Shown piece by piece: positions 30,750 to 46,669 of a stretch of 64,000 nucleotides of DNA. The stretch lies in the NCBI GenBank assembly GCA_902793435.1, contig CADBDF010000005.1:14383-78382 (forward strand), written 5' to 3'. The stretch's first letter is position 1. Each line of letters starts with the position of its first letter. Source of the DNA: an uncultured Pseudomonadota bacterium (GTDB lineage Bacteria; Pseudomonadota; Alphaproteobacteria; Rs-D84). Under the pieces are notes generated by a model, which searched no databases, was not told where the DNA came from, and was given only the letters and a program-made list of their open reading frames with translations. The translations under genes and the position numbers were made by a program.

Positions 30750-30783
30750 GAAAATCTATAAATATAGAAAATTTGTAGCAGAC

Positions 30784-31138: not shown

Positions 31139-31222
31139 ACATGTACTAAAAAAATACAAAAGAGAGAATGCATCAACCAACTTTTACGGAATATTTTTGG
31201 TGATTTTATCGCGACTAACGGA

Positions 31223-31681
31223 CTAAATTTTGCTTTTTAATTTTTCAAAAAAAATATCAAATCCATTATACTCTATGTGTCGTCTTACTCGTTTGTTTAC
31301 AGCAATAACTCTGCCGGTTGGCATCTGTGTTGATAAGCCAGCGTTGTATTCATGCCAATAAGACGATTTATCTGTTTTGATTCCAAGTTTTTGTAAAGCT
31401 TCTTCTGCCAAATCGCCTATGGGAGCATTTGGCAGTACAACCCCATTATTAAAAGTACGAGTTTTTGCATATATACCGTATCCGATTTTTATCAATGTAC
31501 CATCTTTTACTAACATGCGTAATGCACGCAGCACTTGATCATAGTCATATTCCGCCACAAGATCATCAAAATCCTTTAAGATAAAAACGTTGTCTTTTCG
31601 TCTTTTAATGCGTAATGCGGTTTTGTATAAAAGGGGCTTTTTATTTTTCATGTTGCGATCTCTTGTGTCAAAATACGACAT
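31223..31681 (-). CDS. DUF6088 / AbiEi_4-like wHTH protein
   Basis: The pattern VFILKDFDD...ALRMLVKDGTLIKIGYGIYAK...AGLSTQMP matches the AbiEi-type antitoxin-like family by eye. Confidence 0.55.
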   Translation of the reverse strand: MSYFDTRDRNMKNKKPLLYKTALRIKRRKDNVFILKDFDDLVAEYDYDQVLRALRMLVKDGTLIKIGYGIYAKTRTFNNGVVLPNAPIGDLAEEALQKLGIKTDKSSYWHEYNAGLSTQMPTGRVIAVNKRVRRHIEYNGFDIFFEKLKSKI

Positions 31682-31721
31682 TTTTATATAAAAAGCGAGA
31701 TTTTTTTATAGAAATACTATC

Positions 31722-31960
31722 AAAAACGACAAATTATTGCAAAAACAGCACTAAAAATAACAAATAATTGCAAAAAGACGTTAAAAAGGGATTAAAAACG
31801 ACAAAAAATAGCAATAATCAAAAACAATAGAAATTCTTGCTAAAAATATGCGTATTTTTAGTTAAAAATGACAAATTGTTGCAAAAATAGCATTAAAAAC
31901 GACAAATTATTGCAAAATGCTCTTGAAAATACGTTAAAAATAACATAAAATTACAATAAA
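31722..31960. promoter_or_regulatory. six direct ~24-bp repeats (AAAAACGACAAATTATTGCAAAA) in divergent intergenic region
   Basis: Copies start at 31722, 31753, 31794, 31864, 31895 and 31936. The spacing is 31/41/70/31/41, meaning a 142-bp duplicated triplet. Confidence 0.6.
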
Positions 31961-31971
31961 GAGGTTTAAGT

Positions 31972-33438
31972 ATGGTGATAGATAATTTACCAGAGGTGTT
32001 TTTATCAACGGGCGATGTGGCTTATAAGGTTTCTCGTCTATTGAAGGATGGTCAGGTAAAAAAATTGACCGGTAATTTGTATACTTCTAATGTCACAGAC
32101 GATGTCGACAAGATTGTTTCTACTCGTTTATGGGAAATCGTTGGGTTGTTGTTTCCTGGTGCCATTATCTCAGATCGAACCGCTTTTTATATGGGACCAA
32201 ATAAAGATCATGAAATATTTATCGTTTCAGAAAAATCCAGACGACCGGTAAAAGTTGGCTCTTATACAATTTATCCTCGTCCTGGGGCGGCTGTTCAGCC
32301 ATCTGATACACCTTTTATGGGAAATTTGTTTTTGGCTTCTAATGCTAGAAAATACTTAGAGAATATGAGGGTATCTCGTAACAAAGTTAGTATAGAACCT
32401 CGTTATTTATCTCAACAAGAAATAGAAGAAAAATTGGATCAATATATACGGGTTAATGGGGAGGCCGCATTAAATAAATTGCGTGACGATATGCGCACTT
32501 TATCTGCCACGTTAAAGTTGGAATCAGAGTTCAATAAAATAAATTCGATCATCAGTACGTTGTTAAGAACTCATACCTCAAGATTGAAATCTAATGTTGG
32601 TATTGCTCGCTCTATGGGTGAAGAATTTGATCCTGAACGTGTTGTGTTATTCACGGCGTTATATGAGGCACTTAGTTCAACCGCTCCGGTAATTCGTAAA
32701 ACCGAACAGAACTTTTCTCCAGTTTTATGTTTTTATGAATCATATTTTTCTAATTATATTGAGGGAACTAAATTTGCTGTTTCTGAAGCACAGGATATAG
32801 TTTTTAATAATAAAATACCCGCATCTCGGCCCGATGATGCACATGATATAGCTGGAACGTATGCTGTTATTTCTAGCGAACATGACATGTTGCGTACACC
32901 AAAGAATTTTGATGACTTTATTGACATATTAAAAAAAAGGCATGCACGTATAATGGAAGGGAGACCAGAAAAAGAACCCGGAAAATTTAAAACATTATTA
33001 AACCAGGCCGGATCCACAGTATTTGTTGAACCAAATCTTGTTGTTGGAACTTTAAAACAAGCTTTTGAATTGTATTCAAGGTTGGATACAGCCTTTGCGC
33101 GTGCTGTGTTTATGATGTGTGCAATAGCAGAAGTTCATCCTTTTAATGATGGAAATGGGCGTATATCAAGAATTATGATGAATTCAGAACTTGTTGCAAA
33201 CAACGAATCTCGTATAATAATACCAACAATTTATCGTTCGAATTACTTGATGGCATTGAAGGGTTTCTCTCATAACAAAATTACTGATTCTATAATAAAG
33301 ACGATGGATTTTGCTCAAAAATATACTAGTCAAATAGATTGGACTGATTTGCGCACAGCTACTGATATATTACAATCAACAAATGCGTTTGTTGAGGACG
33401 CTGAAAATATTACGGCATTATTAAGATTGCCGAAATAG
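31972..33438 (+). CDS. AbiEi-like N-terminal domain fused to class II Fic (AMPylase-type) domain
   Basis: Fic motif HPFNDGNGRISR and N-terminal inhibitory-helix motif SNYIEG. The N-terminal ~230 aa have AbiEi features (LLKDGQVKKLTGNLY, AIISDRTAF). Confidence 0.85.
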   Translation: MVIDNLPEVFLSTGDVAYKVSRLLKDGQVKKLTGNLYTSNVTDDVDKIVSTRLWEIVGLLFPGAIISDRTAFYMGPNKDHEIFIVSEKSRRPVKVGSYTIYPRPGAAVQPSDTPFMGNLFLASNARKYLENMRVSRNKVSIEPRYLSQQEIEEKLDQYIRVNGEAALNKLRDDMRTLSATLKLESEFNKINSIISTLLRTHTSRLKSNVGIARSMGEEFDPERVVLFTALYEALSSTAPVIRKTEQNFSPVLCFYESYFSNYIEGTKFAVSEAQDIVFNNKIPASRPDDAHDIAGTYAVISSEHDMLRTPKNFDDFIDILKKRHARIMEGRPEKEPGKFKTLLNQAGSTVFVEPNLVVGTLKQAFELYSRLDTAFARAVFMMCAIAEVHPFNDGNGRISRIMMNSELVANNESRIIIPTIYRSNYLMALKGFSHNKITDSIIKTMDFAQKYTSQIDWTDLRTATDILQSTNAFVEDAENITALLRLPK

Positions 33439-33794
33439 TTTTTTAATAATTTATTGATGTCCAATAATGAATATTTAGATAGAAAAATATATGCATTTTT
33501 CTATAAAAATCGATTCGTTTGAAAATGGTGATTTTTGGGTCGGGTGCCGTCGATGAGGGGGAGCAAAAAAATTTAACAAAAGTATATTTAGATGCGTTCT
33601 CATACATTTTTGATATATTATGATACATTTCATTTGTTCAAAAAAGTGTATTTTTCTGCGGCTTTTACAAGACTTTTATTTTTTAGCATGCTATAATTTG
33701 CATGTAAGGATATCAAAAATTGCTGTGATTTTAGATGATACTTTACGGCGTTTTTTGAACCGGACAAAACCATCAAAACCCAAAGGAGAAAAAC

Positions 33795-34055
33795 ATGGAA
33801 CATGAGTTCTTGAATTATGGGGGGATGGAGAGAGAACCAAACTATAAACTTATAAACATAAAGGAAGATGTTTTGAAAGACAGGCTGCTTACACCAAGAG
33901 AGACAGCAGCTTATCTTGGATCGTCTGTTTCGGCATTAAGCCAATATCGTGCGCTGGGGATCGGGCCTTTGTACTTCAAAATCGGCAAAATGGTGCGGTA
34001 TCGCATATCAGATATAGATAAATGGCTGGAAGATAAGAAAAACGGTGGGAAATAA
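33795..34055 (+). CDS. AlpA/excisionase-type HTH protein
   Basis: LLTPRETAAYLGSSVSALSQYRALGIGPLYFKIGKMVRYRISDIDKWL fits the HTH_17/AlpA pattern. It lies directly upstream of int. Confidence 0.7.
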   Translation: MEHEFLNYGGMEREPNYKLINIKEDVLKDRLLTPRETAAYLGSSVSALSQYRALGIGPLYFKIGKMVRYRISDIDKWLEDKKNGGK

Positions 34056-34093
34056 TTGTTTCTACTGGATATTCCGTAGTTATCGTGCATTGT

Positions 34094-34101
34094 TGTGTAG
34101 C
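34094..34101 (+). repeat. single TGTGTAGC copy just upstream of the int RBS
   Basis: Same octamer as the island-end clusters, about 7 nt before the aaaggag RBS of int. Confidence 0.35.
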
Positions 34102-34121
34102 TGTAACAAAGGAGTACACAT

Positions 34122-35330
34122 ATGGCAGAACAATGGAAATGTTATACTAAACCGTTTCGGGATACATGGATACATCTGTTGCATTCGGATGTGAATTTAC
34201 AGGTAAGTGACGGGACAATCCCCGGGCTATTCCTGCGATATTCGGCGGCAACGCGTACTATCAGGTTTTTCCTGGGGTGTAAAATCGATAAAAAGAAATG
34301 TAACCTTTATATCGGGCGGTATAACGATTATTCAATCAAAGACATTCGTGAAATGGCATGGAATATGCGGCATCAAATTGCCCAGGGGCAAGACCCACGT
34401 CGCGAAAAGATAGAACAACAAATGAAAGAAAAAGAGGCGCTTGGGGAAAAGTTCCAAGATTTATTCCCACAATACATGGATAAATATGCCAAGGTTTACA
34501 AGAAACCACGAACACAAGATTCTAATTGGGGTGAATACCGATTATATCTGGGGCCAATGTTTGATAAATTATACATGCGTCAGATAGAAGAAAAGCATGT
34601 AATGGATGCCTATGCCAAATGGGTTAAAAAGACATCGTTTTCAACCGCAAATAAAGCACTATCGTTATTCTCAAATTTCTGGGACTGGTGCGAAATGTAC
34701 AAATACGTGGATCGCAACACCAACCCATGTAAATATGTTCGCAAAGGGGCGAATAAAACTTACAAGCCACAAATACTTGATCAAAATGGCTATCGTGCGT
34801 TATCGCATGCGCTGGAGGTTGGACCAAAGGTGTCCAGAATGCATCCACGCTTATTCAATGCTTTGCGGGTTTTAATGCTAACCGGATGTCGTGCATCAGA
34901 AATAACAGGTCTGGAAGTAGACGAATTGGCACTGATGCACAAAGTAATACATTTGAAAGACAGTAAGACCGGGGCCAGGGATGTTAAGTTATGTGATGCG
35001 GTTATACCATATTTACAGGCTGCGCTGGATGAAGCAACTGCGCTGGGCAGTAAATACGTATTTCCAGGCGTAGGCAATATCCGGCGCCCAATAAATAACA
35101 TCCGTAAACCGTTTGAATGGGCGCTGGAATACGCAAAGCTGCCCCACATGCGAATACACGACCTGCGGCACTCATTCATCAGTATGGGGGCGAATATAGG
35201 CGAAAACATGGCCGCCATGAAAGAAGCGGCAGGCCACAGTCGCATAACCACCACCGAAGGCTACACTCATATCATGGACAGCAGCACCTATCGTGCGATA
35301 AATAACGTTGCAAACGCAATATGTGGCTAG
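34122..35330 (+). CDS. int: tyrosine-type site-specific integrase (P4-like, DUF4102 N-domain)
   Basis: Catalytic boxes TGCRASEI, HDLRHSF and GHSRITTTEGYTH, with a P4-type N-terminal arm-binding region. Confidence 0.95.
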   Translation: MAEQWKCYTKPFRDTWIHLLHSDVNLQVSDGTIPGLFLRYSAATRTIRFFLGCKIDKKKCNLYIGRYNDYSIKDIREMAWNMRHQIAQGQDPRREKIEQQMKEKEALGEKFQDLFPQYMDKYAKVYKKPRTQDSNWGEYRLYLGPMFDKLYMRQIEEKHVMDAYAKWVKKTSFSTANKALSLFSNFWDWCEMYKYVDRNTNPCKYVRKGANKTYKPQILDQNGYRALSHALEVGPKVSRMHPRLFNALRVLMLTGCRASEITGLEVDELALMHKVIHLKDSKTGARDVKLCDAVIPYLQAALDEATALGSKYVFPGVGNIRRPINNIRKPFEWALEYAKLPHMRIHDLRHSFISMGANIGENMAAMKEAAGHSRITTTEGYTHIMDSSTYRAINNVANAICG

Positions 35331-35361
35331 TTGTGCGCTGGTGTATCGTGATGAATCAAAT

Positions 35362-35385
35362 TCGCCCCGTTACAGGGGCGTTTTT
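35362..35385 (+). terminator. terminator after int
   Basis: Stem cgcccc / ggggcg with loop gttaca, followed by ttttt. Confidence 0.55.
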
Positions 35386-35390
35386 ATGGG

Positions 35391-37109
35391 GGTAACGGCG
35401 AGCGCAATGCCTCTTTACACACACAACGTCAAAATGTGTTCGCAGTTCGCACTTTGGGGGTGTAAACCGCAGAAATCTGGTAAAACATGGGTGCGAACAC
35501 ATGCGAACACCTAGTGCGAACACCTAATGTGATTTGAAGGTATACTTGCGACCTTTGTTCCGGCCGGTGGCAACCAAAAAACCTTTATTTACTAAAACAG
35601 AAAACAATTGTCGGACACGTTGTGGTGATTTGCCGGTGGCTTTTATTGCATCTGCGGCGGTGACTTCGCCCTTGGTAATAATGATCACTGCGATGGTTTT
35701 TAAGAACTTATGTTCGGTATCGCTCAGCATATCGATAGTTATATCGCTAGCTATATCGCTAACTTTTTTATCGCTACTAGCGATATATTGACGTTGATTT
35801 ATAAAATCGTCATACATAAAAATTCACCTTTTATCGGGTTCATTTTTGATTCTAACCCATTTTTCCGAAAAATCTAGTCTTTTAAGAAAGCCGTCTAACT
35901 GTCCTGTATTGTGGCGTATCATAAAAAATCAAAAAGGTACTGTCTGGACATTTTTCTATTGAGGGTAACGGCGAGCGAGGCACTTCGCTAGCGTCAGAAC
36001 AAAAAATAGGTGCGCAGGTGCGCACTTTGGGTATTTATTGCGTAAAAACAAAGCGTTAAGTGCGCACCTGGGGTGCGCACCAGGTTCGCACCCATGATTT
36101 CAGTTCTGAAATCACATACGATATCGTGTACGATTTCATATACGATATCGTGGGTAAAGAAAAAGAAAGAAGTAAGTAGTAAAGGAAAAGATAAATATAA
36201 AGAAAAAGATAATTGTAAAGAAAGAGAAAGAAGTAATGCACGTTCAAATTGTTGAAAACCTGTTGAAAACTTACGTGCATCTGTTGGTATAGTTTGTAAT
36301 GCTTTGCAATGTGTTGATAACTATTTTGTGCACACCAGATGTATCACAAAGTATCAATGTGTTTTGTCATGCAAGGATGATAGTTAGCAATATGGCTTGT
36401 TACATACAGAGCAAAAAAGGTGTCCGCAGTCCGCACTTTGGGTCTTTGTTTCGTAAAAACAATAAGTGCGTGTCATTGGTGCGTGCCTAGTACGCATCAA
36501 AACAAAAAAGGTACTGTGACGGGAGTTTCAATCAAGGGTAACGGCGAGCGCAGCGCCTCGCTACACACAAGATAAAATTTTAAGCCGCATGCCGCACCGC
36601 AGGGGTCAAGTGTGCAGAAATCTGGTTTTTTAGTGCGGCTTTGTGCCGCGGCAGTGCCGCACTTATGCCGCACAGAGACAGAACAAATTGCCTATGAACC
36701 CCAATCAAGAACCATAAAAAATATCGTGATGTGTTAATTTGATTCAAAAAGAATCGTAATGTTTTTTCATGAATTTACATATAAAAATATCATGATTTTT
36801 TGGGTCAAATGTATCGTGGTGTATCATAATGTGTCAACGAAAAAATCCGCAGAAAATAAGGGCTTTACAAATGAAAATTTTTCATGCATGGTGGGGATGA
36901 AGCAAAGGATTTTTTATGAACGATTTTGAGTTTGTTGTTGATTTGTTAAGTAAAACAGGGGCTGTTGGCAACTGCATTATAGACCTGGAAATAACGAAAC
37001 GGAATTTCAGTGCGTTAAAAGGCAACAATGATGTGCGGATACAAAAACAGCTCAACATCAGTTTGCAAAGATATCACAACGAAATTGATGAACTGCATAG
37101 AATAGTTGG
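35391..37109. repeat. three tandem diverged modules with exact 573-bp period and module-specific iterons
   Basis: The GGTAACGGCGAGCG box occurs at 35391, 35964 and 36537. cgcactttggg lies at offset +57 in modules 1 and 2. gcagaaatctgg lies at offset +80 in modules 1 and 3. Each module has its own NNCGCAC word family in direct and inverted copies. Confidence 0.6.
35524..35817 (-). CDS. small winged-helix DNA-binding protein
   Basis: 97 aa. The C-terminus AADAIKATGKSPQRVRQLFSVLVNKGFLVATGRNKGRKYTF is wHTH-like. The stop codon overlaps the GTGCGAACAC iterons. Confidence 0.5.
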   Translation of the reverse strand: MYDDFINQRQYIASSDKKVSDIASDITIDMLSDTEHKFLKTIAVIIITKGEVTAADAIKATGKSPQRVRQLFSVLVNKGFLVATGRNKGRKYTFKSH

Positions 37110-37290
37110 CATCAATCCGTCATCGCCAAACGAACCAATACCACATAACCCCAGAAACGAATTGCAATATATCACCGACAGAATCCCCGCATATGTAGCC
37201 TTACGAGAACTAAAAGGCGACCTCAGAGCATATGCAATAGATTGTCTGTTGCCCAGATTGTATCCAAAACGAAAAATCGGGGGGATATAG
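36916..37290 (+). CDS. small conserved protein, paralogue A (R-M-associated)
   Basis: 124 aa. It aligns without gaps, at about 30% identity, to the 47240..47593 product (MNDFEFV/MNNFDFV; YITDRIPAYVALREL/YITRMIPTYVICREL). The upstream ctttacaaa...atgcat region is also shared. Confidence 0.6.
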   Translation: MNDFEFVVDLLSKTGAVGNCIIDLEITKRNFSALKGNNDVRIQKQLNISLQRYHNEIDELHRIVGINPSSPNEPIPHNPRNELQYITDRIPAYVALRELKGDLRAYAIDCLLPRLYPKRKIGGI

Positions 37291-37356
37291 GATGTTCTAC
37301 TTGACTTTATCCCTTGTTTTGGGCTACATTTTTCACAAAGGAAAGGTTGAAATCTC

Positions 37357-38346
37357 GTGGAATACGAAGTTGATGTAAAAGAAAGTATGATAAAGAAAAA
37401 GTGGCCAGGGGTTCTGGAGCTGCTTCTTTTAGATCACACAACGAATAAAAACATATTTTGGGCTACAGATCTTTATGAAAAACGGTACAAATCACGCTTC
37501 TATGCCTTTAGATCGCCAATTACAATAGATTTGATCACTGAGGGAGAAGATCGTGTTATTAAACCTCGTGTCACCAAAGAAAAACAAGATCGACAATATC
37601 GTATCAAGGATAAAGCAGAAGTTTTTACACCAGCATGGATTTGCAATAAACAAAACAACCTGATTGACAATGATTGGTTCGGTTATGAGGGTGTTTTCAA
37701 CAAAGAAAAAGATGATAATACCTGGACCGCCACCAAGAAACCGGTTATGTTTCCAGAAGGAAAAAATTGGGTTGATTATGTTCGTGAATTGCGGTTAGAG
37801 GTTGCGTGTGGTGAGGCGCCGTATTTGGTCAGTCGATATGACATCACAACCGGTAAAAAAATCAAGTTACAGAATAGAATTGGTTTGTTGGATCGCAAGA
37901 TGCGTATAGTAAACGAAAACGCCGCCAGTGATAGCGAATGGATTGCGATGACAAAATGGGCGTTCAAAAGCACATACGGTTACGAATGGCAGGGGGATAA
38001 TTTGTTATTGGCCCGTGAAAACCTGTTGTTCACATTTATCGATTATTTTGAAGATAGATTTGGTAAAGAACCAGATATGGAAATGTTGAAAGAAATAGCG
38101 GAAATCATTTCTTGGAATATTTGGCAGATGGACGGCATTCGTGGTGTGTTGCCATGCACGTGTTGTAATTCAAAATACACAGATTTATTTGGCGAAAAAA
38201 CGATGGACTGTTGTCTTGGGTGTAAAACGGGCGATATCCACAGTCATAATGGAAAATACTGCTATATCGGTGATTGGAACAGAATGACATCAAAAGGACA
38301 ACCAACAAAAATTAAATATATTTCATTACTAAAGGGTAAAAAATGA
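37357..38346 (+). CDS. degenerate gamma-MTase-like N-lobe protein with C-terminal Cys/His zinc-finger-like cluster
   Basis: Motif X-like AEVFTPAWICN and motif I-like LEVACGEAPYLVSRYD, but no NPPY. The C-terminus is CTCCNS...CCLGCKTGDIHSH. GTG start after an aaggaaagg RBS. The stop overlaps the next start (ATGA). Confidence 0.65.
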   Translation: MEYEVDVKESMIKKKWPGVLELLLLDHTTNKNIFWATDLYEKRYKSRFYAFRSPITIDLITEGEDRVIKPRVTKEKQDRQYRIKDKAEVFTPAWICNKQNNLIDNDWFGYEGVFNKEKDDNTWTATKKPVMFPEGKNWVDYVRELRLEVACGEAPYLVSRYDITTGKKIKLQNRIGLLDRKMRIVNENAASDSEWIAMTKWAFKSTYGYEWQGDNLLLARENLLFTFIDYFEDRFGKEPDMEMLKEIAEIISWNIWQMDGIRGVLPCTCCNSKYTDLFGEKTMDCCLGCKTGDIHSHNGKYCYIGDWNRMTSKGQPTKIKYISLLKGKK

Positions 38347-41300
38347 GCAACTTTGAATCAGCTTTCAGTGGTTATAAACTTATTTACGTTTTTAGCATGC
38401 CTTACGCAGATCACGATGGTGCGTTAAAGATAGGTGAAGCAACAATAAACACCGATGAGTTGCCGGATACTTTGACCCCAAATTGTCAGGAATTAAATGC
38501 TGCTGCTAACAAACGTATTAAGCAATATACTCAGACAGCAGGCCTGAGGTACGATTTGTTATACACAGAACTTGCTAAGACAAACGCCGGTAAGGCTTTT
38601 TCTGATCATGATGTTCATAAAGTTTTAAATCGTTCAAACATAAAGAAAAAACAATTTGAAGAAGTCGATGGATCCAAAGAATGGTATATGGTTGGTTTAG
38701 ATGTTGTAAAAAATGCGATAAGGGCCGTTAAAGAAGATAGAAAATCATTGGATCCAAACGAAGCCATTTCATCTTGTGCACCGATCCTTTTACGTGATGA
38801 ACAGAAAGATGCAGTAAAGAAAACAATCAAGCGTTTCAAGTCTGGGCATAATCGTATGTTGTGGTATGCAAAGATGCGGTTTGGGAAAACATTAACAGCA
38901 ATGTCTTTGGTGGGCGAATTAGGTTTAAAACGTACAATAATCATCACGCATAGACCGGTGGTAAAAGATGGTTGGTATGATGATTTCAAAAAACTATTTT
39001 GTGATAAACCAGATTATAAATTCGCTTCACGTACAGTCGGTGAAAATTTTGAAGACGTAGAGCGCGATGCAAAACACGATAGATGTAAATATTTATACTT
39101 CGCATCCATTCAGGATTTGCGTGGCGCAGAAGCCGCTGGTGGAAAGTTTGATAAAAACAATGCGATATTTAACACCGATTGGGATATGGTCATAATTGAT
39201 GAGGCTCACGAGGGTACCCAAACAGAACTTGGTAAGAATATTGCAGAATTGTTGGTTAAAGACAAAACATACTTGTTGCAATTGTCCGGTACACCGTTCA
39301 ACTTGTTGGATAATATAGACGAAGACGAGGTCTATACTTGGGACTATATTATGGAACAGCGTGCCAAGGCAGATTGGCATAAAAAACACCTCGGTGAACC
39401 GAACCCTTATGCATCTTTGCCAAAGATGAATATATTTACTTATGACATGAGTAAAATAGAAGGTGGCAAATATGGGTCTTATACCGAAGATAAATATTTC
39501 AACTTTTCTGAGTTTTTCAAGACTAAACCAAATGGTGATTTTGTTCATGAAGACGACATTCGTGAGTTCTTAAATTTGTTAGTAGACGATAAAGCAGACA
39601 GTAATTATCCTTTCTCTAAACAAGAGTATCGTGATAACTTCAGACATTCGTTGTGGATGGTTCCTGGTGTAAAGGAAGCAAAGGCACTTAGCAAATTGTT
39701 AAAAGATCACCCTGTGTTCGGAAAGTTTAATATAGCAAACGTAGCTGGTGATGGTGACGAAGAAACAAACTTTAAAGATGCGCTGGACTTAGTACGTAAA
39801 GCGATTACGGATCATCCGCAGGACACATATTCTATAACGATTTCCTGTGGTCGTTTAACAACAGGTGTAACTGTACCAGAATGGACGGCTGTATTTATGT
39901 TGGCTGGTGCATACTCAACGGCCGCATCAACATACATGCAAACAATATTCCGTGTTCAATCGGCGGCAAACATCAATGGTCGTATCAAAGAAAACTGTTT
40001 TGTTTTTGATTTTGCACCTGATCGTACCCTGAAATGTGTTGCTGAATCTGTTAAGGTTTCAACACGTGCCGGTAAAACACGTGCAACCGATCGTGCGATA
40101 ATGGAAGATTTGTTGCAATTCTGCCCGATTATTTCGGTAACTGGTTCACATATGAACCCGTATAATGTCAATGGTATGCTTGAACAATTAAAACGTGCGT
40201 ACATTGATCGTATCGTTACTCATGGATTTGAGGATCCAAATCTGTTCAATCGTGATATGTTGTTACAGTTGGATAAATCGGCGGTTGAAAAGTTTGATGC
40301 TTTACAAAAATTGGTTGGCAGTTCAACGTCCAAAAACTCTGATACGAATAAAGAAAAACAAATTATCATGGCTGATAATGGCATGAATCCAGATGGTGCA
40401 AAACAATCTGATCAACAGCCACCACAAACGCCACTAACAGATGATGAACGTGCTGCGTTGGAAGAACGTAAAGAGGCTAAATCAAAACGCGAAAAAGCTT
40501 TAAAGGCATTGAAGGGTGTTGCTATTCGTATTCCAATGTTGATTTACGGCGCAGATATCGATGTAAACCAAGATATTGACTTGGAGCAGTTCGTTGATAT
40601 GGTTGATCCAATATCGTGGGAAGAATTTATGCCGCGTGGCATAGATAAAGAAGTGTTTAAACAATTTATCCCATATTTTGATCGTGATGCGTTTATTGGG
40701 GCTGGTAAAGAGATTCGCCAACGTATTAAACGTGCTGACCGTATGGAACCAACAACCAGAACACGTTTCATGACTGCGCTGTTCTCTACCTTTAAAAACC
40801 CTGACAAGGAAACGGTTTTAACGCCGTGGCGTGTCGTGAATATGCATATGGGTGATTGTTTGGGGGGATATAATTTTTATGATCCAGAATACAAGAATCC
40901 AATTCCAGATACCGAAGATGTTAGGTATATGGATATCCCAAATGTTACGGATGAAGTTTTTGGACCAAAAGATACCAAAATTTTGGAAATAAATTCAAAG
41001 TCTGGTTTGTATCCATTATATGTGACATACACAATTTGGCGTAAAAGATGTATGGAAAATAACATTGATATAACAAAATTAACCGAAGATGACACATTAT
41101 TTGCCAAAGCACTTGAGATATGGGACAGCGTCGTTCAAAATAATGTCTATATTATCTGCAAAACCCAAATGGCTAAAAGCATTACGCAAAGGACTTTGTG
41201 CGGCTATCGTGATGCTAAAATAAATGCACACGCTTTTGACAATTTGGTTACAATGATAAAAGATGGTAAAAGCAATAAATTTATAGAAAAAGCGAAAACT

Positions 41301-42359
41301 GGTTCAACATATAATTCAAAATCAAAGGAGGCAAATATGAAATTTAATGCGGTAGTGGGCAATCCTCCTTACCAGGAGAATATAGATAATCGTGGTGAAC
41401 AACCTCCTTTGTATCATTTTTTCTATGATTGTGCACAACAGTTATCCGCAATTGTGACCCTTATAACACCGGCTAGATTTTTGTTTAATGCTGGTAAAAC
41501 ACCGGCGGCATGGAATAAAAAGATGTTGAATGATCCTCATTTTAAGGTTGTGGATTATTTCCAAAATTCTAAAAATGTTTTTGATAGTGTAGACATTAAA
41601 GGCGGTGTTGCTATTTCTATTATAGATCAGCATCGTAATTTCGGTAAGATAGGGGACTTTGTGAAAAACAATGAGATACGAGATATTTTAGTGAAAGTCT
41701 CAAATCAAAATAATTTGTCAGAAATTGTATTTTCAAATACTAGCTATAAGTATAGCAAGCTGTTTTTTGAAGAGCACAAAGAATTAAGAGATAGAGTTTC
41801 CGGTGGATCATCAAGATATTTATCTTCATCTGTATTTGATAAATTTCCAGAAGTTTTCTATGAAGAGCTGCCAAAAGACAACAAGAAATATATCTGTATT
41901 TTAGGAAGACAGAATTCTCATCGGCGTTTTATGTGGATGAGGGCGGATTATTTATGTCCTCCAAATAATTGTAATAAATATAAAGTTTTTATAGCCAGTT
42001 CTAATGGCACGGGAGCTCTGGGTGAAGTTTTGAGTGAACCTATTGTAGGAAAGCCTTTTACAGGGGCTACAGAAACTTTTTTAAGTATTGGTAATTTTGC
42101 AAATGAAGAGCAGGCTGTGAATTTATGTAAATATATAAAAACTAAATTTGCTAGAGTAATGCTGGGGACTAAAAAAGTAACACAGGGCAATAAAAAACCA
42201 GAAATTTGGTCTAATATCCCTTTGCAGGATTTTACGAATAAATCTGATATTGACTGGTCTAAATCTATTGCCGAAATAGATAAGCAATTATACAAGAAGT
42301 ACGGCCTGGATAAAAAAGAAATCGATTTCATCGAATCCATGATCAAACCAATGGAGTAA
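38343..42359 (+). CDS. GIY-YIG/T5orf172-like domain - SF2 (ResIII/SNF2-like) helicase - Eco57I-type N6-adenine MTase fusion protein
   Basis: 1338 aa. The N-terminus has YKLIYVF..LKIGEA..KEWYMV. Helicase motifs are Walker A MRFGKT (~38875-38892), DEAH (39198-39209), LSGTP and QTIFRVQS. MTase motifs are motif X ETVLTPWRVV, atypical motif I ILEINSKSGLYPLYV and NPPY at 41361-41372. Confidence 0.85.
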   Translation: MSNFESAFSGYKLIYVFSMPYADHDGALKIGEATINTDELPDTLTPNCQELNAAANKRIKQYTQTAGLRYDLLYTELAKTNAGKAFSDHDVHKVLNRSNIKKKQFEEVDGSKEWYMVGLDVVKNAIRAVKEDRKSLDPNEAISSCAPILLRDEQKDAVKKTIKRFKSGHNRMLWYAKMRFGKTLTAMSLVGELGLKRTIIITHRPVVKDGWYDDFKKLFCDKPDYKFASRTVGENFEDVERDAKHDRCKYLYFASIQDLRGAEAAGGKFDKNNAIFNTDWDMVIIDEAHEGTQTELGKNIAELLVKDKTYLLQLSGTPFNLLDNIDEDEVYTWDYIMEQRAKADWHKKHLGEPNPYASLPKMNIFTYDMSKIEGGKYGSYTEDKYFNFSEFFKTKPNGDFVHEDDIREFLNLLVDDKADSNYPFSKQEYRDNFRHSLWMVPGVKEAKALSKLLKDHPVFGKFNIANVAGDGDEETNFKDALDLVRKAITDHPQDTYSITISCGRLTTGVTVPEWTAVFMLAGAYSTAASTYMQTIFRVQSAANINGRIKENCFVFDFAPDRTLKCVAESVKVSTRAGKTRATDRAIMEDLLQFCPIISVTGSHMNPYNVNGMLEQLKRAYIDRIVTHGFEDPNLFNRDMLLQLDKSAVEKFDALQKLVGSSTSKNSDTNKEKQIIMADNGMNPDGAKQSDQQPPQTPLTDDERAALEERKEAKSKREKALKALKGVAIRIPMLIYGADIDVNQDIDLEQFVDMVDPISWEEFMPRGIDKEVFKQFIPYFDRDAFIGAGKEIRQRIKRADRMEPTTRTRFMTALFSTFKNPDKETVLTPWRVVNMHMGDCLGGYNFYDPEYKNPIPDTEDVRYMDIPNVTDEVFGPKDTKILEINSKSGLYPLYVTYTIWRKRCMENNIDITKLTEDDTLFAKALEIWDSVVQNNVYIICKTQMAKSITQRTLCGYRDAKINAHAFDNLVTMIKDGKSNKFIEKAKTGSTYNSKSKEANMKFNAVVGNPPYQENIDNRGEQPPLYHFFYDCAQQLSAIVTLITPARFLFNAGKTPAAWNKKMLNDPHFKVVDYFQNSKNVFDSVDIKGGVAISIIDQHRNFGKIGDFVKNNEIRDILVKVSNQNNLSEIVFSNTSYKYSKLFFEEHKELRDRVSGGSSRYLSSSVFDKFPEVFYEELPKDNKKYICILGRQNSHRRFMWMRADYLCPPNNCNKYKVFIASSNGTGALGEVLSEPIVGKPFTGATETFLSIGNFANEEQAVNLCKYIKTKFARVMLGTKKVTQGNKKPEIWSNIPLQDFTNKSDIDWSKSIAEIDKQLYKKYGLDKKEIDFIESMIKPME

Positions 42360-42364
42360 AGTGT

Positions 42365-42703
42365 ATGCGAGTAGATGTGAACTTTAAAATATCCAACGAT
42401 AATGATAATCAATACCATGATGAAATTGTTGCTGGCTTGATGGATAGATATAATTGGTATGAAGAGTATGGTTTAATTGGTGGCGACATTCCTAATATGG
42501 TAAATAATGATGTCTGCATGTCAGAGTGCTATAAAATGGTTTTGGCGGTTGTTCAGGATGTAGCAACAAAGTATAATCAAATATTACAACTTGATGCTTT
42601 ATATATTTCGGTGAATCTTGTTGCTAGAAATTACGTACCTGGGCAGCAAATACAACCTGGAACAATGAAAGAATATAAGAACATAACAGTTAAACCAATA
42701 TAG
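42365..42703 (+). CDS. hypothetical protein, last gene of operon
   Basis: 112-aa ORF starting 5 nt after the previous stop. A GGAG RBS sits within the upstream gene's end. Confidence 0.5.
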   Translation: MRVDVNFKISNDNDNQYHDEIVAGLMDRYNWYEEYGLIGGDIPNMVNNDVCMSECYKMVLAVVQDVATKYNQILQLDALYISVNLVARNYVPGQQIQPGTMKEYKNITVKPI

Positions 42704-42733
42704 ATACAAAGTTCGTAAAAATAAATTTATAAC

Positions 42734-43219
42734 TTATTGCGCTGTTTGACTCTTTGCCGCTAACAGATTGGCGCGTTCGTTCTTTTTCTCTTGTAAATCT
42801 ATGTAAGTATATCTGCGTGAAGTTTTTATCGGGTACGTAGAGTACACAAAATCAATGAACTTATTAAACGAAAAATCTTTCGTAAGCTCAATAACTTTAC
42901 AAATAACGTTTTTTTCAGATTCTGTTAAATGTTTATAATCATAATTTGTGTTCTTTATGCTTATATACAAAGCTGTCCCATGCGGAGTTTTTGTAAAGAA
43001 CTCTTCTGATGCAGCGTCGCACACTTCTTGAACATAAGGTCCATAATTGTGAAAAAACCATTTGATGCCAGATATGCTTTTTGCATCTGGCGTTAGCAAT
43101 ACGTTTCGCCAGTCAGACAAAAACACCAACTTTGTAAGTCGTGCGTTGGATAGATCTTGTCTTTTGTTTTCGGGGTATGCCGATATGATAAAATGTATGA
43201 TTTCTTGCAGTTTATTCAT
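42734..43219 (-). CDS. Panacea (DUF4065, SocA/PanA-like) domain protein
   Basis: ARLTKLVFLSDWRNVLL...FFHNYGPYVQEV matches the DUF4065 pattern. The start overlaps the upstream gene's stop by 8 nt. Confidence 0.7.
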   Translation of the reverse strand: MNKLQEIIHFIISAYPENKRQDLSNARLTKLVFLSDWRNVLLTPDAKSISGIKWFFHNYGPYVQEVCDAASEEFFTKTPHGTALYISIKNTNYDYKHLTESEKNVICKVIELTKDFSFNKFIDFVYSTYPIKTSRRYTYIDLQEKKNERANLLAAKSQTAQ

Positions 43220-44057
43220 TTTCTAACCCCTCGACTTCTTTCATTATTTTAACATATTTGTAATAAGATTTGAATAATTTTGTTATCTTTTTAAACACCG
43301 CTTTACACAAGTATTTTATAATTAGCTTTTGAAAAAATTTTCCAAAATGACCGTAAAGCGACTCATTTGTTGTTTCAAACACGATAACACCAAGTTTTTC
43401 ATCATTGCATTTGAATTGTTGTGCATAATAAATTGCGGATTTCATTTTTATTCCATGTAATACTTTTTGATCCATATTTGGGTATGTGTTTTTGTTCTTT
43501 TTTACCCACTGACTGGCAGATTCTACTTTGCCAAAATTATGGTATATGTTACGCGTGTTATTAAAACATGTTCCGACAATATCGTCTTGTAAAATTAGAC
43601 TTTTAGGATCTTTATTCTTTTGGTTTTCATTTGCTGAATACCTATAAAATCGCAAGAAAGATTGTGTCGTATCCTGGATGTATATTGTGACGCGTTCATT
43701 TGCTTCAAAATTTGCCAACAATGAAGAAAGGGCCATGACTTTATCACAAGATTTAAATAAGTGCTTTTTTACCAGGCTTTTTAAATCTTCAGGATCATAG
43801 GTGTTGCTTAAGTGTTCAAACCAACCTAACATCGGATCTATTATTATTGCACGCAAGCACCACAATATAACGACAACAAGCGCAAACACCCGTAAGGCTG
43901 GTGCAATATTGTAACCAAATATAACATGCCCATCAGGGAAAAGAGAAAAATAGGCCAATATTATAGCAACTATGAACGGGCCGCCAAACATCAAACGACC
44001 GTTTATATTCCAATTCAGTTTTATGTTATGAAAAATATTATAGAACCAAAATCTCAT
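43212..44057 (-). CDS. membrane protein (2-3 TM) with cytoplasmic GAF-like domain
   Basis: N-terminal hydrophobic helices (FGGPFIVAIILAYFSLF, ALRVFALVVVILWCL). The C-terminal region ends in a KLGVIVFETTNESLYGHF GAF-like pattern; this domain call is weak. Confidence 0.55.
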   Translation of the reverse strand: MRFWFYNIFHNIKLNWNINGRLMFGGPFIVAIILAYFSLFPDGHVIFGYNIAPALRVFALVVVILWCLRAIIIDPMLGWFEHLSNTYDPEDLKSLVKKHLFKSCDKVMALSSLLANFEANERVTIYIQDTTQSFLRFYRYSANENQKNKDPKSLILQDDIVGTCFNNTRNIYHNFGKVESASQWVKKNKNTYPNMDQKVLHGIKMKSAIYYAQQFKCNDEKLGVIVFETTNESLYGHFGKFFQKLIIKYLCKAVFKKITKLFKSYYKYVKIMKEVEGLENE

Positions 44058-44157
44058 GGAAAAACCAGTACCACACTTCCTTGAAAAAAACTTACTTGAA
44101 TATAATCAAATTGTTTGCCTTATAGTTGTATAAAATACTTCTTGTTAACGATTACGC

Positions 44158-44186
44158 ATTGTATCATAAAATGCCATAAAAGTCAA
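44158..44186 (-). promoter_or_regulatory. sigma70-like promoter for the TM/Panacea operon
   Basis: The minus strand reads TTGACT-N17-TACAAT, about 95 nt upstream of the start at 44057. Confidence 0.4.
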
Positions 44187-44241
44187 TAAAAAAGCCAAAA
44201 ATAGCGAAGTGGTTCAATATGGTATAAAATATCGTTTTGCT

Positions 44242-44688
44242 TCAGGTTGTAATAAACACAAACCCGAACCATTTGCGTAAAAGGTTAAGATGTGCTTGGT
44301 ATGTTGTTGCGCTGGCTTGTTCTCGCTTGAATTCGGCAATTTCTTCGGCCGACAGGCCAAGTTCCCGAGCAAATCGATTAGCTAGCCCTATAAGGTAGAA
44401 AACGTTTCCTTGCGGGCTTTTCAGGTCAATAACGATGCCAGTCGGATACTTTGCGTTGGGTATAGTGGGTATATCGTTGCGCTGGTAGGCTTTATGATGG
44501 GCCACAACCTGCACAAACTTGTTTTGTATACGGCGGAGCAGCCATGCCTGGCGGCAGGTCAATTTACCGCCGTTTGTGCGACGAATTGCGGCCTGTAGTT
44601 CGCGTAAAGACCGACAAGCGGCAAAATATAACATCACAAAATCTGTGCGATGGTTGGGCAAAATATCGTCAAAATGCGTATATTTCAT
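44242..44688 (-). CDS. hypothetical protein (has a relic paralogue at 51005-51211)
   Basis: The ATG at 44688 follows an aaagga RBS. The segment TNGGKLTCRQAWLLRRIQNKF recurs outside the island. Confidence 0.5.
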   Translation of the reverse strand: MKYTHFDDILPNHRTDFVMLYFAACRSLRELQAAIRRTNGGKLTCRQAWLLRRIQNKFVQVVAHHKAYQRNDIPTIPNAKYPTGIVIDLKSPQGNVFYLIGLANRFARELGLSAEEIAEFKREQASATTYQAHLNLLRKWFGFVFITT

Positions 44689-44812
44689 AGACAATCCTTT
44701 TAAGGTTGTCGTATTTGTCCGCATTTATTGCCAAAAGTCCAGTTGTTTGTTGTAAATAAAGGATATTGCTTGTTTTTCAAATTTTTGGTAATTTGGAACC
44801 AAAGGGGACAAA

Positions 44813-45574
44813 ATGGCAGATTATAAGGAATATCTGGATAAAATAAGAAATTCGCAGTTGTTATATTTTGATTCATTTCCATTGGATATGACGTCTTGTG
44901 AATATAATGTGCATTTGTTGTTGAATAAAATGGCAGAGTCAAGAAAATCGTATTTATTACTAATGGACAATGAAAGGTTTTCAGATGCCGTATTGATAGC
45001 AGGACATTTGTTAGAGAATGCTGCGGTGATCAATTATATTTCTGCCAGTTTGCAAGAAGCTAATACAAAACAAATAAGCAAATTACAAACTCTATGTGAT
45101 TTATTCAAATTTGTAGGCGATGATAATGTGGATGCGGAAACTCAAGAAACTATAGATTTTATAATGGATGATTTTAAGAATAGATGCGACATAGTTGTAT
45201 CGAAAAAAGCGGAACAAAGTCACGAAGAATTGGTCCAGACTATATTGATGGCTATGACAAATTCGGAAAAATTAAGAATTATAAAAAATAATTACGAATT
45301 TCCGGTGGTTGAAGATTATTTGAGGCCGTTTAGGAAAGATTTATCAAATTTTTATGGTTTTTCCGGTATTGATAAAAAGCTTGTGTTGTTTTATTCGTCA
45401 TATTGCAAAATAAAACACTGCGGGGCGGCTATGTATGCGCCAGTTCTATGCAAAGATAGGGTTGTTATGAATAAAAATCAGTACAGAGACCTTAGCCCTA
45501 TAGTTGTCTGGATGTGTTTGGAATACACAGAAAAGAATATAAAAAATATATTGTCAATAAACGAACTAAAATAA
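44813..45574 (+). CDS. hypothetical protein
   Basis: 253-aa ORF with a ggggacaaa RBS-like stretch. No confident domain. Confidence 0.5.
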   Translation: MADYKEYLDKIRNSQLLYFDSFPLDMTSCEYNVHLLLNKMAESRKSYLLLMDNERFSDAVLIAGHLLENAAVINYISASLQEANTKQISKLQTLCDLFKFVGDDNVDAETQETIDFIMDDFKNRCDIVVSKKAEQSHEELVQTILMAMTNSEKLRIIKNNYEFPVVEDYLRPFRKDLSNFYGFSGIDKKLVLFYSSYCKIKHCGAAMYAPVLCKDRVVMNKNQYRDLSPIVVWMCLEYTEKNIKNILSINELK

Positions 45575-46402
45575 GTCGTGTTTTAGATTTTTTCTACGTC
45601 TCTTTCGATTCCTTTTGTTCTGTTTTTCTTCTTCAAGATCTTTTTTGCACTTTTCCTTATAGTCAGCAAAACGTTTGTTATATAGCATCTTCATTTCAGA
45701 TATAAATTTTTTGACATTTGTAGAAATGTCTTCCGCTGATTTGATTTTGGTGTATTTATTTACGATTTTTGTGTGTTCTTTATCTTGCGACAATATAAAT
45801 AAACCAACTTGATCAAACAATTCCAGATAGGACCATTTTGGTAATTTTTCACGATGTGGTCCTAAATTGGTGTGAATTATTACAGAAACTTCTTTCAGCT
45901 TTTCAAAACCAGTAATGTTTTTAAAATATTGTGAGAACACCTGTTTATTTGTTTGTAACGTTTGTTGTGCATAGGCACATTGATTGTAGGCTTCATGTGG
46001 TGGTATAAATAAAAAAGTAATATCTTCTTTTGATAGCGGTTGTATTATTATTTCAGATTTTGGTTTTAAATGAATAAACACGTCAAATTCATGATAACTA
46101 TATAACTTCAACATTATGGTTAGTTCTTTGACTTTAATAGCTTCTCTTGAGCGGTTTTTTATAGATAGTTCTACATGTGGATTTTGTTCCTGGTCTTGCT
46201 TCCCTTCTCTAAATTCTGGAATGCCGGATTTTATTGCAAATTTAGCGAAAGTTGTTAAAAACTCTCTCAGGGGGAAAAATAATGCGACCGCAACAGCTAG
46301 AAAAGTTGCAACTACTCCAGCCTTTTCCCAAGCAGAATCACGACCAAGTTGTTCGATGGTTTTTAATAATTGTTGAAAGTCTGAATTTGATATTATCACC
46401 AT
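45566..46402 (-). CDS. hypothetical membrane-anchored protein with highly basic C-terminus
   Basis: 278 aa with one TM (GVVATFLAVAVALFFPL) and the tail KRNRKRRRKNLK. It overlaps the convergent neighbour by 9 nt. Confidence 0.45.
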   Translation of the reverse strand: MVIISNSDFQQLLKTIEQLGRDSAWEKAGVVATFLAVAVALFFPLREFLTTFAKFAIKSGIPEFREGKQDQEQNPHVELSIKNRSREAIKVKELTIMLKLYSYHEFDVFIHLKPKSEIIIQPLSKEDITFLFIPPHEAYNQCAYAQQTLQTNKQVFSQYFKNITGFEKLKEVSVIIHTNLGPHREKLPKWSYLELFDQVGLFILSQDKEHTKIVNKYTKIKSAEDISTNVKKFISEMKMLYNKRFADYKEKCKKDLEEEKQNKRNRKRRRKNLKHDLF

Positions 46403-46543
46403 ATTATAACCTTACTACTGCGGATATAGGTATAAAATCAGATTTTTCAATAATAGTATCGCATTATGTTCAAAATATGTAGACAATTTTACGGGTTGAA
46501 AAAGCATAAGTTATTCATAAGACGACGGATAGGTTACGGATCC

Positions 46544-46562
46544 TGTGTAGCTATTGTGTAGC
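46544..46562 (+). repeat. two direct TGTGTAGC repeats (putative arm-type sites, tRNA-proximal end)
   Basis: Copies at 46544 and 46555, in the same orientation as the left-end cluster, about 135-150 bp from the att core. Confidence 0.5.
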
Positions 46563-46629
46563 CAGAGGGGTGTTTTATGGCGTATTTTGGTGTATCGTAG
46601 TATGCGTAAATACAGAAGTGTTAAGTAAA

Positions 46630-46660
46630 GAAAATGCCGTAAACCTGCGGGGTTTACGGC
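46630..46660 (-). terminator. terminator after tRNA-Asn (island-encoded)
   Basis: Stem gccgtaaacc / ggtttacggc. Confidence 0.5.
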
Positions 46661-46669
46661 GGAATTCCT

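Follow-up and report, generated by a model that had tools for sequence, protein, structure and literature searches.

Which kind of enzyme is encoded by two overlapping genes in the genome of an uncultured alphaproteobacterium (GTDB lineage Rs-D84; assembly GCA_902793435.1) is the question raised by the locus described here. The window, i.e. the whole stretch of DNA that was analysed, comprises 64,000 nucleotides (nt) of contig CADBDF010000005.1 (positions 14,383 to 78,382 of the forward strand), and the two genes code for a protein of 329 amino acids (aa; p329) and a protein of 1338 aa (p1338). The original prediction, made from the nucleotide sequence of this window, had placed them at the centre of a four-gene operon encoding an atypical Type ISP-like defence candidate. 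As set out below, p329 and p1338 alone form the conserved unit, to which the proteins encoded on either side (p124 and p112) do not belong. Probably, p329 and p1338 represent an active or recently active ATP-dependent restriction-modification (R-M) system. That they act together as a two-subunit, ATP-dependent R-M enzyme built along Type ISP lines, with an integrative tRNA-Asn island as its carrier, is the interpretation favoured here, with moderate confidence.

Domain architecture and predicted structure of p1338

All four open reading frames (ORFs) of the proposed operon, as well as all motifs quoted for them, were retrieved at the positions given by the original prediction, and the ORF list of the window shows that all four are intact and located on the plus strand (Table 1). 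The GTG start of p329 is backed by homologues beginning with MEYE, and its stop codon (TGA) overlaps the ATG of p1338 in an ATGA sequence (38343-38346); the remaining intergenic gaps are 66 nt (p124-p329) and 5 nt (p1338-p112). The division of p1338 into a predicted nuclease head, a superfamily 2 (SF2) ATPase and a methyltransferase (MTase) agrees with the Pfam matches of this protein and the domain matches of its homologues. The head contains the motifs YKLIYVF (residues 11-17), LKIGEA (28-33), DVHKVL (90-95), and KEWYMV (112-117). It matches T5orf172 (PF10544; residues 14-129) with 18.6 bits, the cut-off being 20, and the same family was matched in 12 of 31 full-length homologues (E ≤0.01; best E 8.9e-7). 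In an alignment of 32 sequences, the head columns LIY, KxG, R, H, and EW were at least 90% conserved, and the ATPase motifs and NPPY were invariant. The ATPase (Pfam ResIII, residues 149-319; E 4e-18) displays MRFGKT (178-183; Walker A), VIIDEAHEG (283-291), LSGTP (314-318), and QTIFRVQS (533-540). The MTase part (Pfam Eco57I, residues 933-1080; E 2e-24) follows the gamma-class order of motifs X, I, II, III, and IV (NPPY), then a target-recognition domain (TRD), with ETVLTPWRVV (823-832) as motif X, ILEINSKSGLYPLYV at 880-894, and NPPY at 1007-1010 (nt 41361-41372). Motifs I and II are non-canonical: motif I reads ILEINSKSGLY, with KSG replacing GxG, and motif II lacks an acidic residue (VYIICKT); motif III is FDNL. 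The region bearing motifs X to III, referred to below as the second N-lobe, ranks with the most strongly conserved stretches of p1338.

An AlphaFold2 (AF2) model of residues 139-1338, i.e. without the T5orf172 head, had a mean predicted local distance difference test score (pLDDT) of 81 and a predicted template-modelling score (pTM) of 0.59. It consists, in this order, of two RecA-like lobes, a helical region (residues ~641-820), an alpha/beta region, and a beta-rich C-terminal domain (residues ~1183-1252). The strands of the alpha/beta region, with a pLDDT of ~85-95, lie at residues 880-885 (motif I), 935-939, 961-964, and 1003-1006 (just before NPPY). A Foldseek search of this model against the PDB returned the Type ISP enzyme LlaBIII (4xqk) as top match (E 3.9e-21; ~1400 aligned columns), ~11 orders of magnitude in E-value ahead of the other structural matches, the next tier of which, near E 1e-10, was formed by CamA (MTase plus DNA-recognition domain), EcoR124I HsdR, RadD, and SauUSI. 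The analogy with Type ISP enzymes drawn in the original prediction is thereby borne out. Neither phmmer nor the 32-sequence profile found a sequence match between p1338 and any PDB chain, including 4xqk and 5ffj; judged from the model, the resemblance to LlaBIII is one of architecture and fold, not of sequence. In the whole-chain alignment with LlaBIII, the helical linker takes the place of a coupler between motor and MTase.

Database labels capture part of this architecture. The PADLOC model MTase_II PDLC03375 (348 positions) aligned end to end with residues 995-1337 of p1338, and the PADLOC model REase_MTase_IIG matched residues 961-1337 only; the C-terminus alone would probably lead automated annotation to classify p1338 as Type IIG. 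The nearest PADLOC models were those for Type IIG and Type II methylases, and the labels given by PADLOC and NCBI are generic R-M names ("Eco57I domain protein", "restriction endonuclease subunit M"), from which neither the proposed ATP dependence nor the proposed two-subunit methylase can be recognised. NCBIfam models gave no match to p1338. As PADLOC returned generic R-M models only and NCBIfam none, the locus does not correspond to a named non-R-M system, as had been surmised.

p329 as a candidate half-methyltransferase

The partner protein p329 displays motif X as EVFTP (residues 88-92, in AEVFTPAWICN at 87-97), motif I as LEVACGEAPY (147-156, in LEVACGEAPYLVSRYD at 147-162), which is comparable to LDPACGSGNFL, motif II as YGYEWQGD (207-214), and motif III as WQMDG (256-260), followed by a C-terminal Cys/His ribbon (267-302). 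Motif IV (NPPY or DPPY) was sought in the p329 sequence and was not found, so that its catalytic domain is incomplete. In the alignment of p329 homologues, AEVFTP (X), LExxCGEAPY (I), YGYEWQGDxxxLAREN (II plus helix), and WNxWQMDG (III) were invariant. The AF2 model of p329 (pLDDT 88; pTM 0.90) shows three parallel strands at the motifs, then the ribbon. Motifs, alignment, and model thus all agree with the earlier description of p329 as an MTase-like N-lobe without catalytic motif, combined with a Cys/His module. The PADLOC model MTase_II PDLC03390 matched p329 over its full length (E 2e-107), a label that names the family and is no test of activity; Pfam, NCBIfam, and PHROG gave no match to p329, p124, or p112.

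A divergent short form of p329 in Lactobacillales contains textbook motifs (GEVFTP, LEPAAGDGNFL, YGIEF, and RGNTL) and is named N-6 DNA methylase by the Prokaryotic Genome Annotation Pipeline (PGAP). On two Lactobacillales plasmids, namely Lactococcus pCV56A (locus L085, 2824-7876) and plasmid 2 of L. brevis ATCC 367 (locus L086, 1720-6872), the large protein counts 1452-1480 aa, with ~150 aa extra at its N-terminus, and the short partner counts 230-236 aa, without the N-terminal domain and the Cys/His ribbon. On balance, p329 appears to be the S-adenosylmethionine (SAM)-binding lobe of a split MTase, completing the NPPY half of p1338.

Conservation of the two-gene unit

Homologue searches returned at least 8000 significant relatives each for p1338 and p329. 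Among the matches listed, full-length p1338 relatives were at least 52% identical, and the p329 family comprised 2348 representatives at 50% clustering. A neighbourhood survey, in which one genome per species was scanned, resulted in 79 loci (loci and relatives are designated by L and P numbers), spanning Alphaproteobacteria, Bacillota, Bacteroidota, Spirochaetota, Actinomycetota, Patescibacteria, and Methanobacteriaceae. In 67 of these 79 loci, the large gene had a p329-type gene, detected by tblastn and with a hidden Markov model (HMM) built from the p329 alignment, as its immediate neighbour; this count includes the divergent short form (236-266 aa). In 11 of the 12 loci without such a neighbour, a contig end removes at least one flank. 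The partner gene is usually located upstream of the large gene; it lies downstream in L027, L049, L056, L065, L073, and L079. A third conserved gene was sought through all-against-all clustering of the ORFs within 5 kb in the 79 loci, and no family occurred in more than six loci, the largest of these neighbour families being the divergent short p329 form itself.

The flanking genes behave differently, and the four-gene operon of the original prediction did not hold in this respect: its check on the conservation of neighbouring genes, carried out on the 79 loci, supported p329 as a partner, but not p124 and p112. Relatives of p124 were found in only two loci (L002 and L004, the two closest relatives), and a full-length relative of p112 only in L002 (43% identical), besides a partial match in L041. 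The p124 family is a narrow one, made up of 62 clusters with identities of 67% or more. In four sister islands (L089-L092), genes for a 94%-identical integrase and for AAA_21/RloB come first, followed by a p124 copy of 68-74% identity and, immediately after it, a Type I R-M system. As these islands place p124 before Type I R-M genes, it belongs to the backbone of an island family with varying R-M cargo. The copies in L089 and L091 each span 7001-7372, and p124, which has no recognisable domain, immediately precedes the cargo slot in all islands inspected; regulation or insulation of the cargo is a possible role.

Fusion, fission, and methylase-only versions

Three topologies occur in the family. 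In type A, represented by the window and most loci, p329 is separate, and T5orf172, helicase, second N-lobe, and the NPPY-TRD half form a single chain. In type B (L066-L069), a protein of 640-700 aa has p329 running directly into MKFDFVIGNPPYQ and the TRD, and a second protein of ~1100 aa contains T5orf172 and helicase and ends in its own lobe of motifs X-I-II-III (NQIFTP..., FIDLYMKSGLY, ...FDSL). In type C (L071 and L078), the three pieces are encoded by three separate genes. Hence, in types B and C, the second N-lobe forms the end of the helicase protein, and the NPPY half belongs to another polypeptide. The break between the pieces falls exactly between motifs III and IV, and the free half starts at residue M999 of p1338, which is invariant. 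All three topologies combine two N-lobes, i.e. a canonical one (p329) and a KSG-bearing one, with one catalytic half; the acidic residue of motif II is absent from the latter lobe in type A.

In the fusions, p329 stands directly before MKFDxVIGNPPY in L066-L069 and in L159, and 34 of the best 150 of the 2348 p329-family representatives look like type-B fusions, judged by their length (590-720 aa). In one such fusion (P0267), Pfam Eco57I (profile positions 3-171) aligned with residues 219-453, from the motif II region of p329 as far as NPPY, the ribbon being inserted within the alignment. In addition, methylase-only versions were found. The lytic jumbo phage PTm1 of Tenacibaculum (L094, 3501-5933) encodes an NPPY-TRD half (gp277, starting with MKFDIIVGNPPYQ), a helix-turn-helix (HTH) protein (gp278), and, as gp279, a p329 homologue of full length (HMM E 5e-156), and no helicase or T5orf172 part was detected in its 224-kb genome; this two-polypeptide methylase module presumably protects the phage's own DNA. 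Similarly, a contig from IMG/VR (L159) carries a p329-NPPY fusion beside a serine recombinase, without motor. In helicase-deleted derivatives (L122 and P0304), p329 was kept, and the second N-lobe was kept together with the NPPY half. Because p329 stays where the NPPY half stays and the second N-lobe can be dropped, p329 is favoured as the working SAM-binding lobe. These fusions and phage modules point to p329 as part of the methyltransferase itself, and the suggestion that it serves as a sensor for recognition or modification is not supported.

On contig L159 (6830-9501), the fusion is followed by a separate ORF of 187 aa that consists of an N-lobe only (FFTP, AEPTCGSGAMVL, and IHGNSL); tblastn gave no match between this ORF and either query for the second N-lobe. 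An additional N-lobe beside the split methylase is thus seen again in a locus that has no helicase.

A hypervariable specificity cassette in p1338

Conservation within the p1338 family is lowest at residues 1099-1218. Five relatives (L001, L002, L004, P0002, and P0005) are 97-100% identical to p1338 over most of residues 1-960, drop to 17-35% over residues 1021-1260, and return to 97-100% in the final 18-40 residues. Likewise, TRD identity was 0.41 or lower in 12 of 14 locus pairs with cores at least 88% identical. In the structure model, the beta-rich C-terminal domain matches the MTase-plus-recognition-domain structures of CamA. Such swapping of a cassette between near-identical proteins, as read from their sequences, shows that a TRD is present within p1338, in contradiction with the statement that no obvious TRD is visible. 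As this TRD varies among otherwise near-identical relatives, sequence-specific recognition under diversifying selection is argued for, and the swappable cassette would be a source of new specificities.

A second mosaic segment was noted in p329, of which residues 1-90 (37357-37626) are 53-77% identical to L001, L002, and L004, compared with 87-100% for residues 91-329. The p329 N-terminus was considered as a second specificity cassette and rejected, since its variation does not follow the TRD swaps in the 14 pairs with near-identical cores: in L001-L002, L017-L055, and L022-L026, the TRDs are swapped, yet the p329 N-termini are 92-99% identical.

Comparison with known systems

The order of nuclease, SF2 motor, helical region, gamma-class N6-adenine MTase, and C-terminal TRD is shared with the Type ISP enzymes LlaGI and LlaBIII, and so is the occurrence on Lactobacillales plasmids. 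Furthermore, near-identical relatives of p1338 differ in their TRD, as do LlaGI and LlaBIII, for which the Type ISP paper gives an identity above 95% over the first three domains, together with different TRDs (PMC3553950). In contrast, the head of p1338 is T5orf172/GIY-YIG-like and that of Type ISP enzymes an Mrr-type PD-(D/E)xK nuclease, a family that gave no match at the p1338 N-terminus. Type ISP enzymes are single polypeptides, whereas a half-methylase partner is obligatory here and the large protein is split two or three ways elsewhere. Moreover, there is no detectable sequence homology between p1338 and the solved LlaGI/LlaBIII chains. The p329-p1338 pair is thus clearly an R-M system of Type ISP-like design, which departs from Type ISP in nuclease family, single-gene sufficiency, and sequence homology. 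The 2013 Type ISP paper refers, in one sentence, to related R-M enzymes that have a helicase, as a subunit or as a domain, and a GIY-YIG nuclease (PMC3553950). Type ISP enzymes are known for ATP-driven translocation in one direction, for cleavage upon head-on collision, and for methylating a single strand of an asymmetric site.

Type IIG/IIL enzymes (Eco57I and MmeI) and CamA share the Eco57I MTase core with NPPY, and the MTase and recognition domain of CamA match the C-terminal part of p1338 (Foldseek E ~1e-10; TM-score ~0.48, normalised to CamA). Unlike p1338, these enzymes are without ATPase motor, have a PD-(D/E)xK nuclease or none, and contain the MTase fold in one piece; the SF2 ATPase with invariant motifs between nuclease and MTase sets p1338 apart from the motor-free Type IIG enzymes. 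Naturally split MTases are known, such as M.AquI alpha/beta and M.EcoHK31I alpha/beta, which are C5-cytosine enzymes split elsewhere in the fold. They too assemble MTase activity from two polypeptides, whereas the present system would be an N6-adenine enzyme broken between motifs III and IV, with a second N-lobe on the motor protein.

The same three domain types as in p329-p1338 are found in DnmA(YeeA)-YeeB-YeeC of Bacillus subtilis and Vibrio crassostreae, a conserved gene cluster of defence islands that consists of an MmeI/Eco57I-like MTase with TRD, an SF2 helicase, and T5orf172 (PMC9973331). Compared by description only, it differs in being made of three proteins, in the order MTase, helicase, T5orf172, with T5orf172 C-terminal in YeeC; also, DnmA is a complete MTase, and a half-methylase partner is not described. 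The literature search yielded no description of the fused family, the obligate half-methylase partner, the three topologies, or recognition sites. For a 2025 paper on the lactococcal defensome, in whose text the genes of the tested "Lla7005III" are not named, plasmid pLLUC7005B was sequenced, which bears a homologue (genes WP_014570254 and WP_014570255).

Proposed mechanism and alternative explanations

In the mechanism that we infer, the C-terminal TRD cassette of p1338 would read a short DNA site, and the NPPY half, together with the SAM-binding N-lobe of p329, would methylate adenine at N6 in host sites, p329 possibly being made first through the ATGA translational coupling. At unmethylated foreign sites, the SF2 motor would hydrolyse ATP and translocate along the DNA, which the T5orf172/GIY-YIG head would cut, possibly upon collision of translocating enzymes, as for LlaGI and LlaBIII. 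The second N-lobe of p1338 would connect the motor to the methylase half.

Several points weigh against such a two-subunit enzyme. The chief one is that the strand order in the p1338 monomer model fits a Rossmann fold closed in cis by the second N-lobe, which, if modelled correctly, would leave p329 without an obvious place. As to p329, a Foldseek search of its model against the PDB gave a best E of 0.95 and no significant solved MTase, the non-significant list being headed by the MTase-containing enzymes PglX, DrdV, and LlaGI; against BFVD, only short phage fragments of the p329 family were significant. Its sequence and profile did not match any PDB sequence, and hhalign of the p329 alignment found nothing in the p1338 alignment or in an MmeI-like protein encoded in the window, so that homology of p329 with the second N-lobe or with canonical MTases, although tried, is not supported. 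Furthermore, one Methanosphaera locus (L075) is the only one with both flanks sequenced and yet no p329. It displays two tandem NPPY-TRD half copies (7338-12978), each broken into two ORFs near residue 1172, upstream of a gene for the helicase and second N-lobe, and no p329 was found within the 21-kb locus; this arrangement could reflect decay or a variant organisation. The extra N-lobe of L159 suggests that two N-lobes per catalytic half may be a real design, which the proposed mechanism leaves unexplained. Lastly, no experimental study of methylation, cleavage, or protection by this family was found in the literature, and DnmA-YeeB-YeeC of B. subtilis gave no phage protection and had no effect on transformation (PMC9973331).

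The cis-closed fold suggests an alternative that is possible but rather unlikely, namely that p1338 is self-sufficient, its MTase being completed in cis by the second N-lobe and the NPPY half, and that p329 is non-catalytic, its role being to sense SAM, to promote assembly or activation, or to restrain the nuclease. DNMT3L, the activation factor for DNMT3A, offers an analogy. The uninterrupted strand order of the AF2 monomer, with its high pLDDT, the alignment of the whole chain with LlaBIII, the strong conservation of the second N-lobe, the retention of this lobe with the NPPY half in L122 and P0304, and the compact domain that p329 forms when modelled alone (pTM 0.90) are all in line with this explanation. 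However, it is p329 that carries canonical SAM-binding motifs, the second N-lobe having KSG instead of GxG and no acidic motif II; types B and C put the second N-lobe on another polypeptide and p329 occurs fused immediately upstream of the NPPY half; and PTm1 and L159 combine p329 with the NPPY half in the absence of the second N-lobe. Both lobes would find a use if they were exchanged, the NPPY-TRD half methylating when combined with p329 and, when combined with the second N-lobe, reading the site without being able to methylate it and licensing translocation and GIY-YIG cleavage instead. Such a lobe-swap switch is speculative and improbable; if true, it would explain why two N-lobes per catalytic half are kept in three fusion topologies, and why methylation-only phages keep p329 while dropping the motor and the second N-lobe.

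The remaining alternatives concern the function or extent of the system. It is very unlikely that p329-p1338 has no restriction activity, whether because it serves modification or epigenetic functions only or because it is the decayed relic of an R-M system, although such a conclusion was drawn for DnmA-YeeB-YeeC of B. subtilis. DnmA-YeeB-YeeC, with the same domain types, fails to protect B. subtilis, and methylase-only derivatives exist in phages, but the homologues of DnmA and YeeB in Vibrio do affect phage sensitivity (PMC9973331). Moreover, the 32-sequence alignment shows little or no variation at the catalytic residues of the GIY-YIG and helicase parts, full-length members of the family are found in phylum after phylum, the ORFs of the window are intact, and TRD swapping suggests the diversifying selection that is typical of active R-M systems. 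Even less probable is a role in mobile-element establishment or anti-restriction, protecting incoming DNA instead of the host, for which DarB of phage P1 and the large methylase-helicases of conjugative elements are models. The conjugative and mobilizable plasmids and the viral contigs that carry relatives (see below) fit this idea, but the nuclease head is conserved, the isolated-phage collection is without a full-length copy, the system stands by rep and toxin-antitoxin genes and not in the leading region of four plasmids, and GmrSD, AbiTii, and nSTAND occur among its neighbours. Least probable is an unnamed four-gene defence system of p124, p329, p1338, and p112 that lacks a TRD and relies on p329 for recognition: tight spacing, a common strand, and the presence of p124 in the two closest relatives speak for it, against which p124 and p112 are each absent from 77 of the 79 loci, p124 precedes Type I R-M cargo in the sister islands, a swappable cassette resides within p1338, and the differences among p329 N-termini are not in step with the TRD swaps.

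If the two-subunit R-M enzyme is the right interpretation, it gives a recognisable mechanism to one of the larger uncharacterised R-M families, in which a motor enzyme of the Type ISP style would cut by means of a GIY-YIG domain. An N6-adenine MTase split between motifs III and IV and having a duplicated N-lobe would constitute a natural experiment in the assembly of SAM-binding and catalytic halves, and possibly informs how modification and restriction are partitioned.

Genomic island, neighbouring genes, and distribution

The p329 and p1338 genes are located in an island of ~15.7 kb (Table 1), which further contains a gene for an HTH_17 protein and the SocA/Panacea module described below. 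An exact 20-nt direct repeat (30969-30988 and 46695-46714) corresponds to positions 32-51 of the tRNA, from the anticodon loop to the start of the T-arm, and the flank of the left copy resembles a decayed tRNA 3' half. These repeats are probably the attachment sites of the island, its integrase being unusually central. The defence-island setting assumed in the original prediction is in agreement with both the gene content of the island and the neighbourhoods of relatives; for instance, a 55%-identical homologue (P0028) adjoins GmrSD, AbiTii, and an nSTAND NTPase.

Table 1. Coordinates of the genes, domains, and island features in the window
Feature	Position	Strand	Description
p329	37357-38346	+	329 aa, GTG start; small obligate partner of p1338
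p1338	38343-42359	+	1338 aa; nuclease-motor-methyltransferase-TRD protein
Predicted T5orf172 (GIY-YIG-like) nuclease head	38373-38729	+	p1338 residues 11-129; Pfam PF10544, conserved columns
SF2 helicase-like ATPase	38787-40262	+	p1338 residues ~149-640; Pfam ResIII, invariant motifs, Foldseek
Helical linker	40263-40802	+	p1338 residues ~641-820; all-helical in AF2 model; whole-chain LlaBIII alignment
Second N-lobe (non-canonical MTase N-lobe)	40803-41336	+	p1338 residues ~821-998
NPPY half of MTase plus TRD	41337-42356	+	p1338 residues 999-1338; starts at invariant M999 (MKFNAVVGNPPYQ)
Hypervariable specificity cassette	41397-42236	+	p1338 residues ~1019-1298, core 1099-1218
p124	36916-37290	+	124 aa; adjoins the module, outside the conserved unit; island-backbone gene just before cargo slot
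p112	42365-42703	+	112 aa; small ORF next to the module, not conserved with it
Integrative island (~15.7 kb)	30969-46745		Bounded by tRNA-Asn and 20-nt repeat; carries p329-p1338
Fic-domain gene	31972-33438		In island
Integrase	34122-35330		In island
tRNA-Asn	46670-46745	-	Island boundary

Relatives of the system were found on 89 plasmid records, mostly of Lactobacillales, 45 of them near full length, with Enterococcus (39 records) and Lactococcus (9) as the commonest genera. MOB-suite typing assigned 23 records to conjugative and 23 to mobilizable plasmids. In each of four plasmids that were inspected, the short partner adjoined the large gene, and the neighbours were rep and toxin-antitoxin genes, not the transfer leading region. 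This carriage on dairy and enterococcal plasmids bears on phage resistance and transformation barriers. In IMG/VR contigs, 510 stretches with relatives were found, and the whole system was present in 61 of 80 loci, indicating that it also travels as prophage or element cargo; the isolated-phage collection contained no full-length copy. The spread of the family includes candidate-phyla-radiation bacteria, Methanobacteriaceae, and prophages, and E. coli genomes gave no DNA match.

Rfam returned the tRNA as sole match over 30000-48000, and promoter-like sites (23, versus a mean of 28.4 in shuffled sequence) and terminator-like sites (9, versus a mean of 5.8) were near chance. A 15-mer (GGGTAACGGCGAGCG) occurs three times (35390-35404, 35963-35977, and 36536-36550) with a spacing of exactly 573 bp, compared with 0.03 expected by chance. 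The copies, which gave no Rfam match, sit in repeat units of ~110-190 nt between the integrase gene and p124. One to three copies also occur just 3' of the integrase gene in L004 and L089-L092, making it an island-backbone repeat.

Directly downstream of p112, which had no PADLOC match either, a gene for a SocA/Panacea-domain protein overlaps an ORF of 281 aa without domain match (42734-43219 and 43212-44057, minus strand), and both probably form a Panacea-type toxin-antitoxin pair. Just outside the island (47574-50576, minus strand), an unrelated second R-M gene encodes the MmeI-like enzyme mentioned above, which counts 1000 aa, matches Pfam N6_Mtase, MmeI_Mtase, Eco57I, and Type_ISP_C, and contains the canonical motifs YYTP, LLDPATGTGTFL, and GNPPY.

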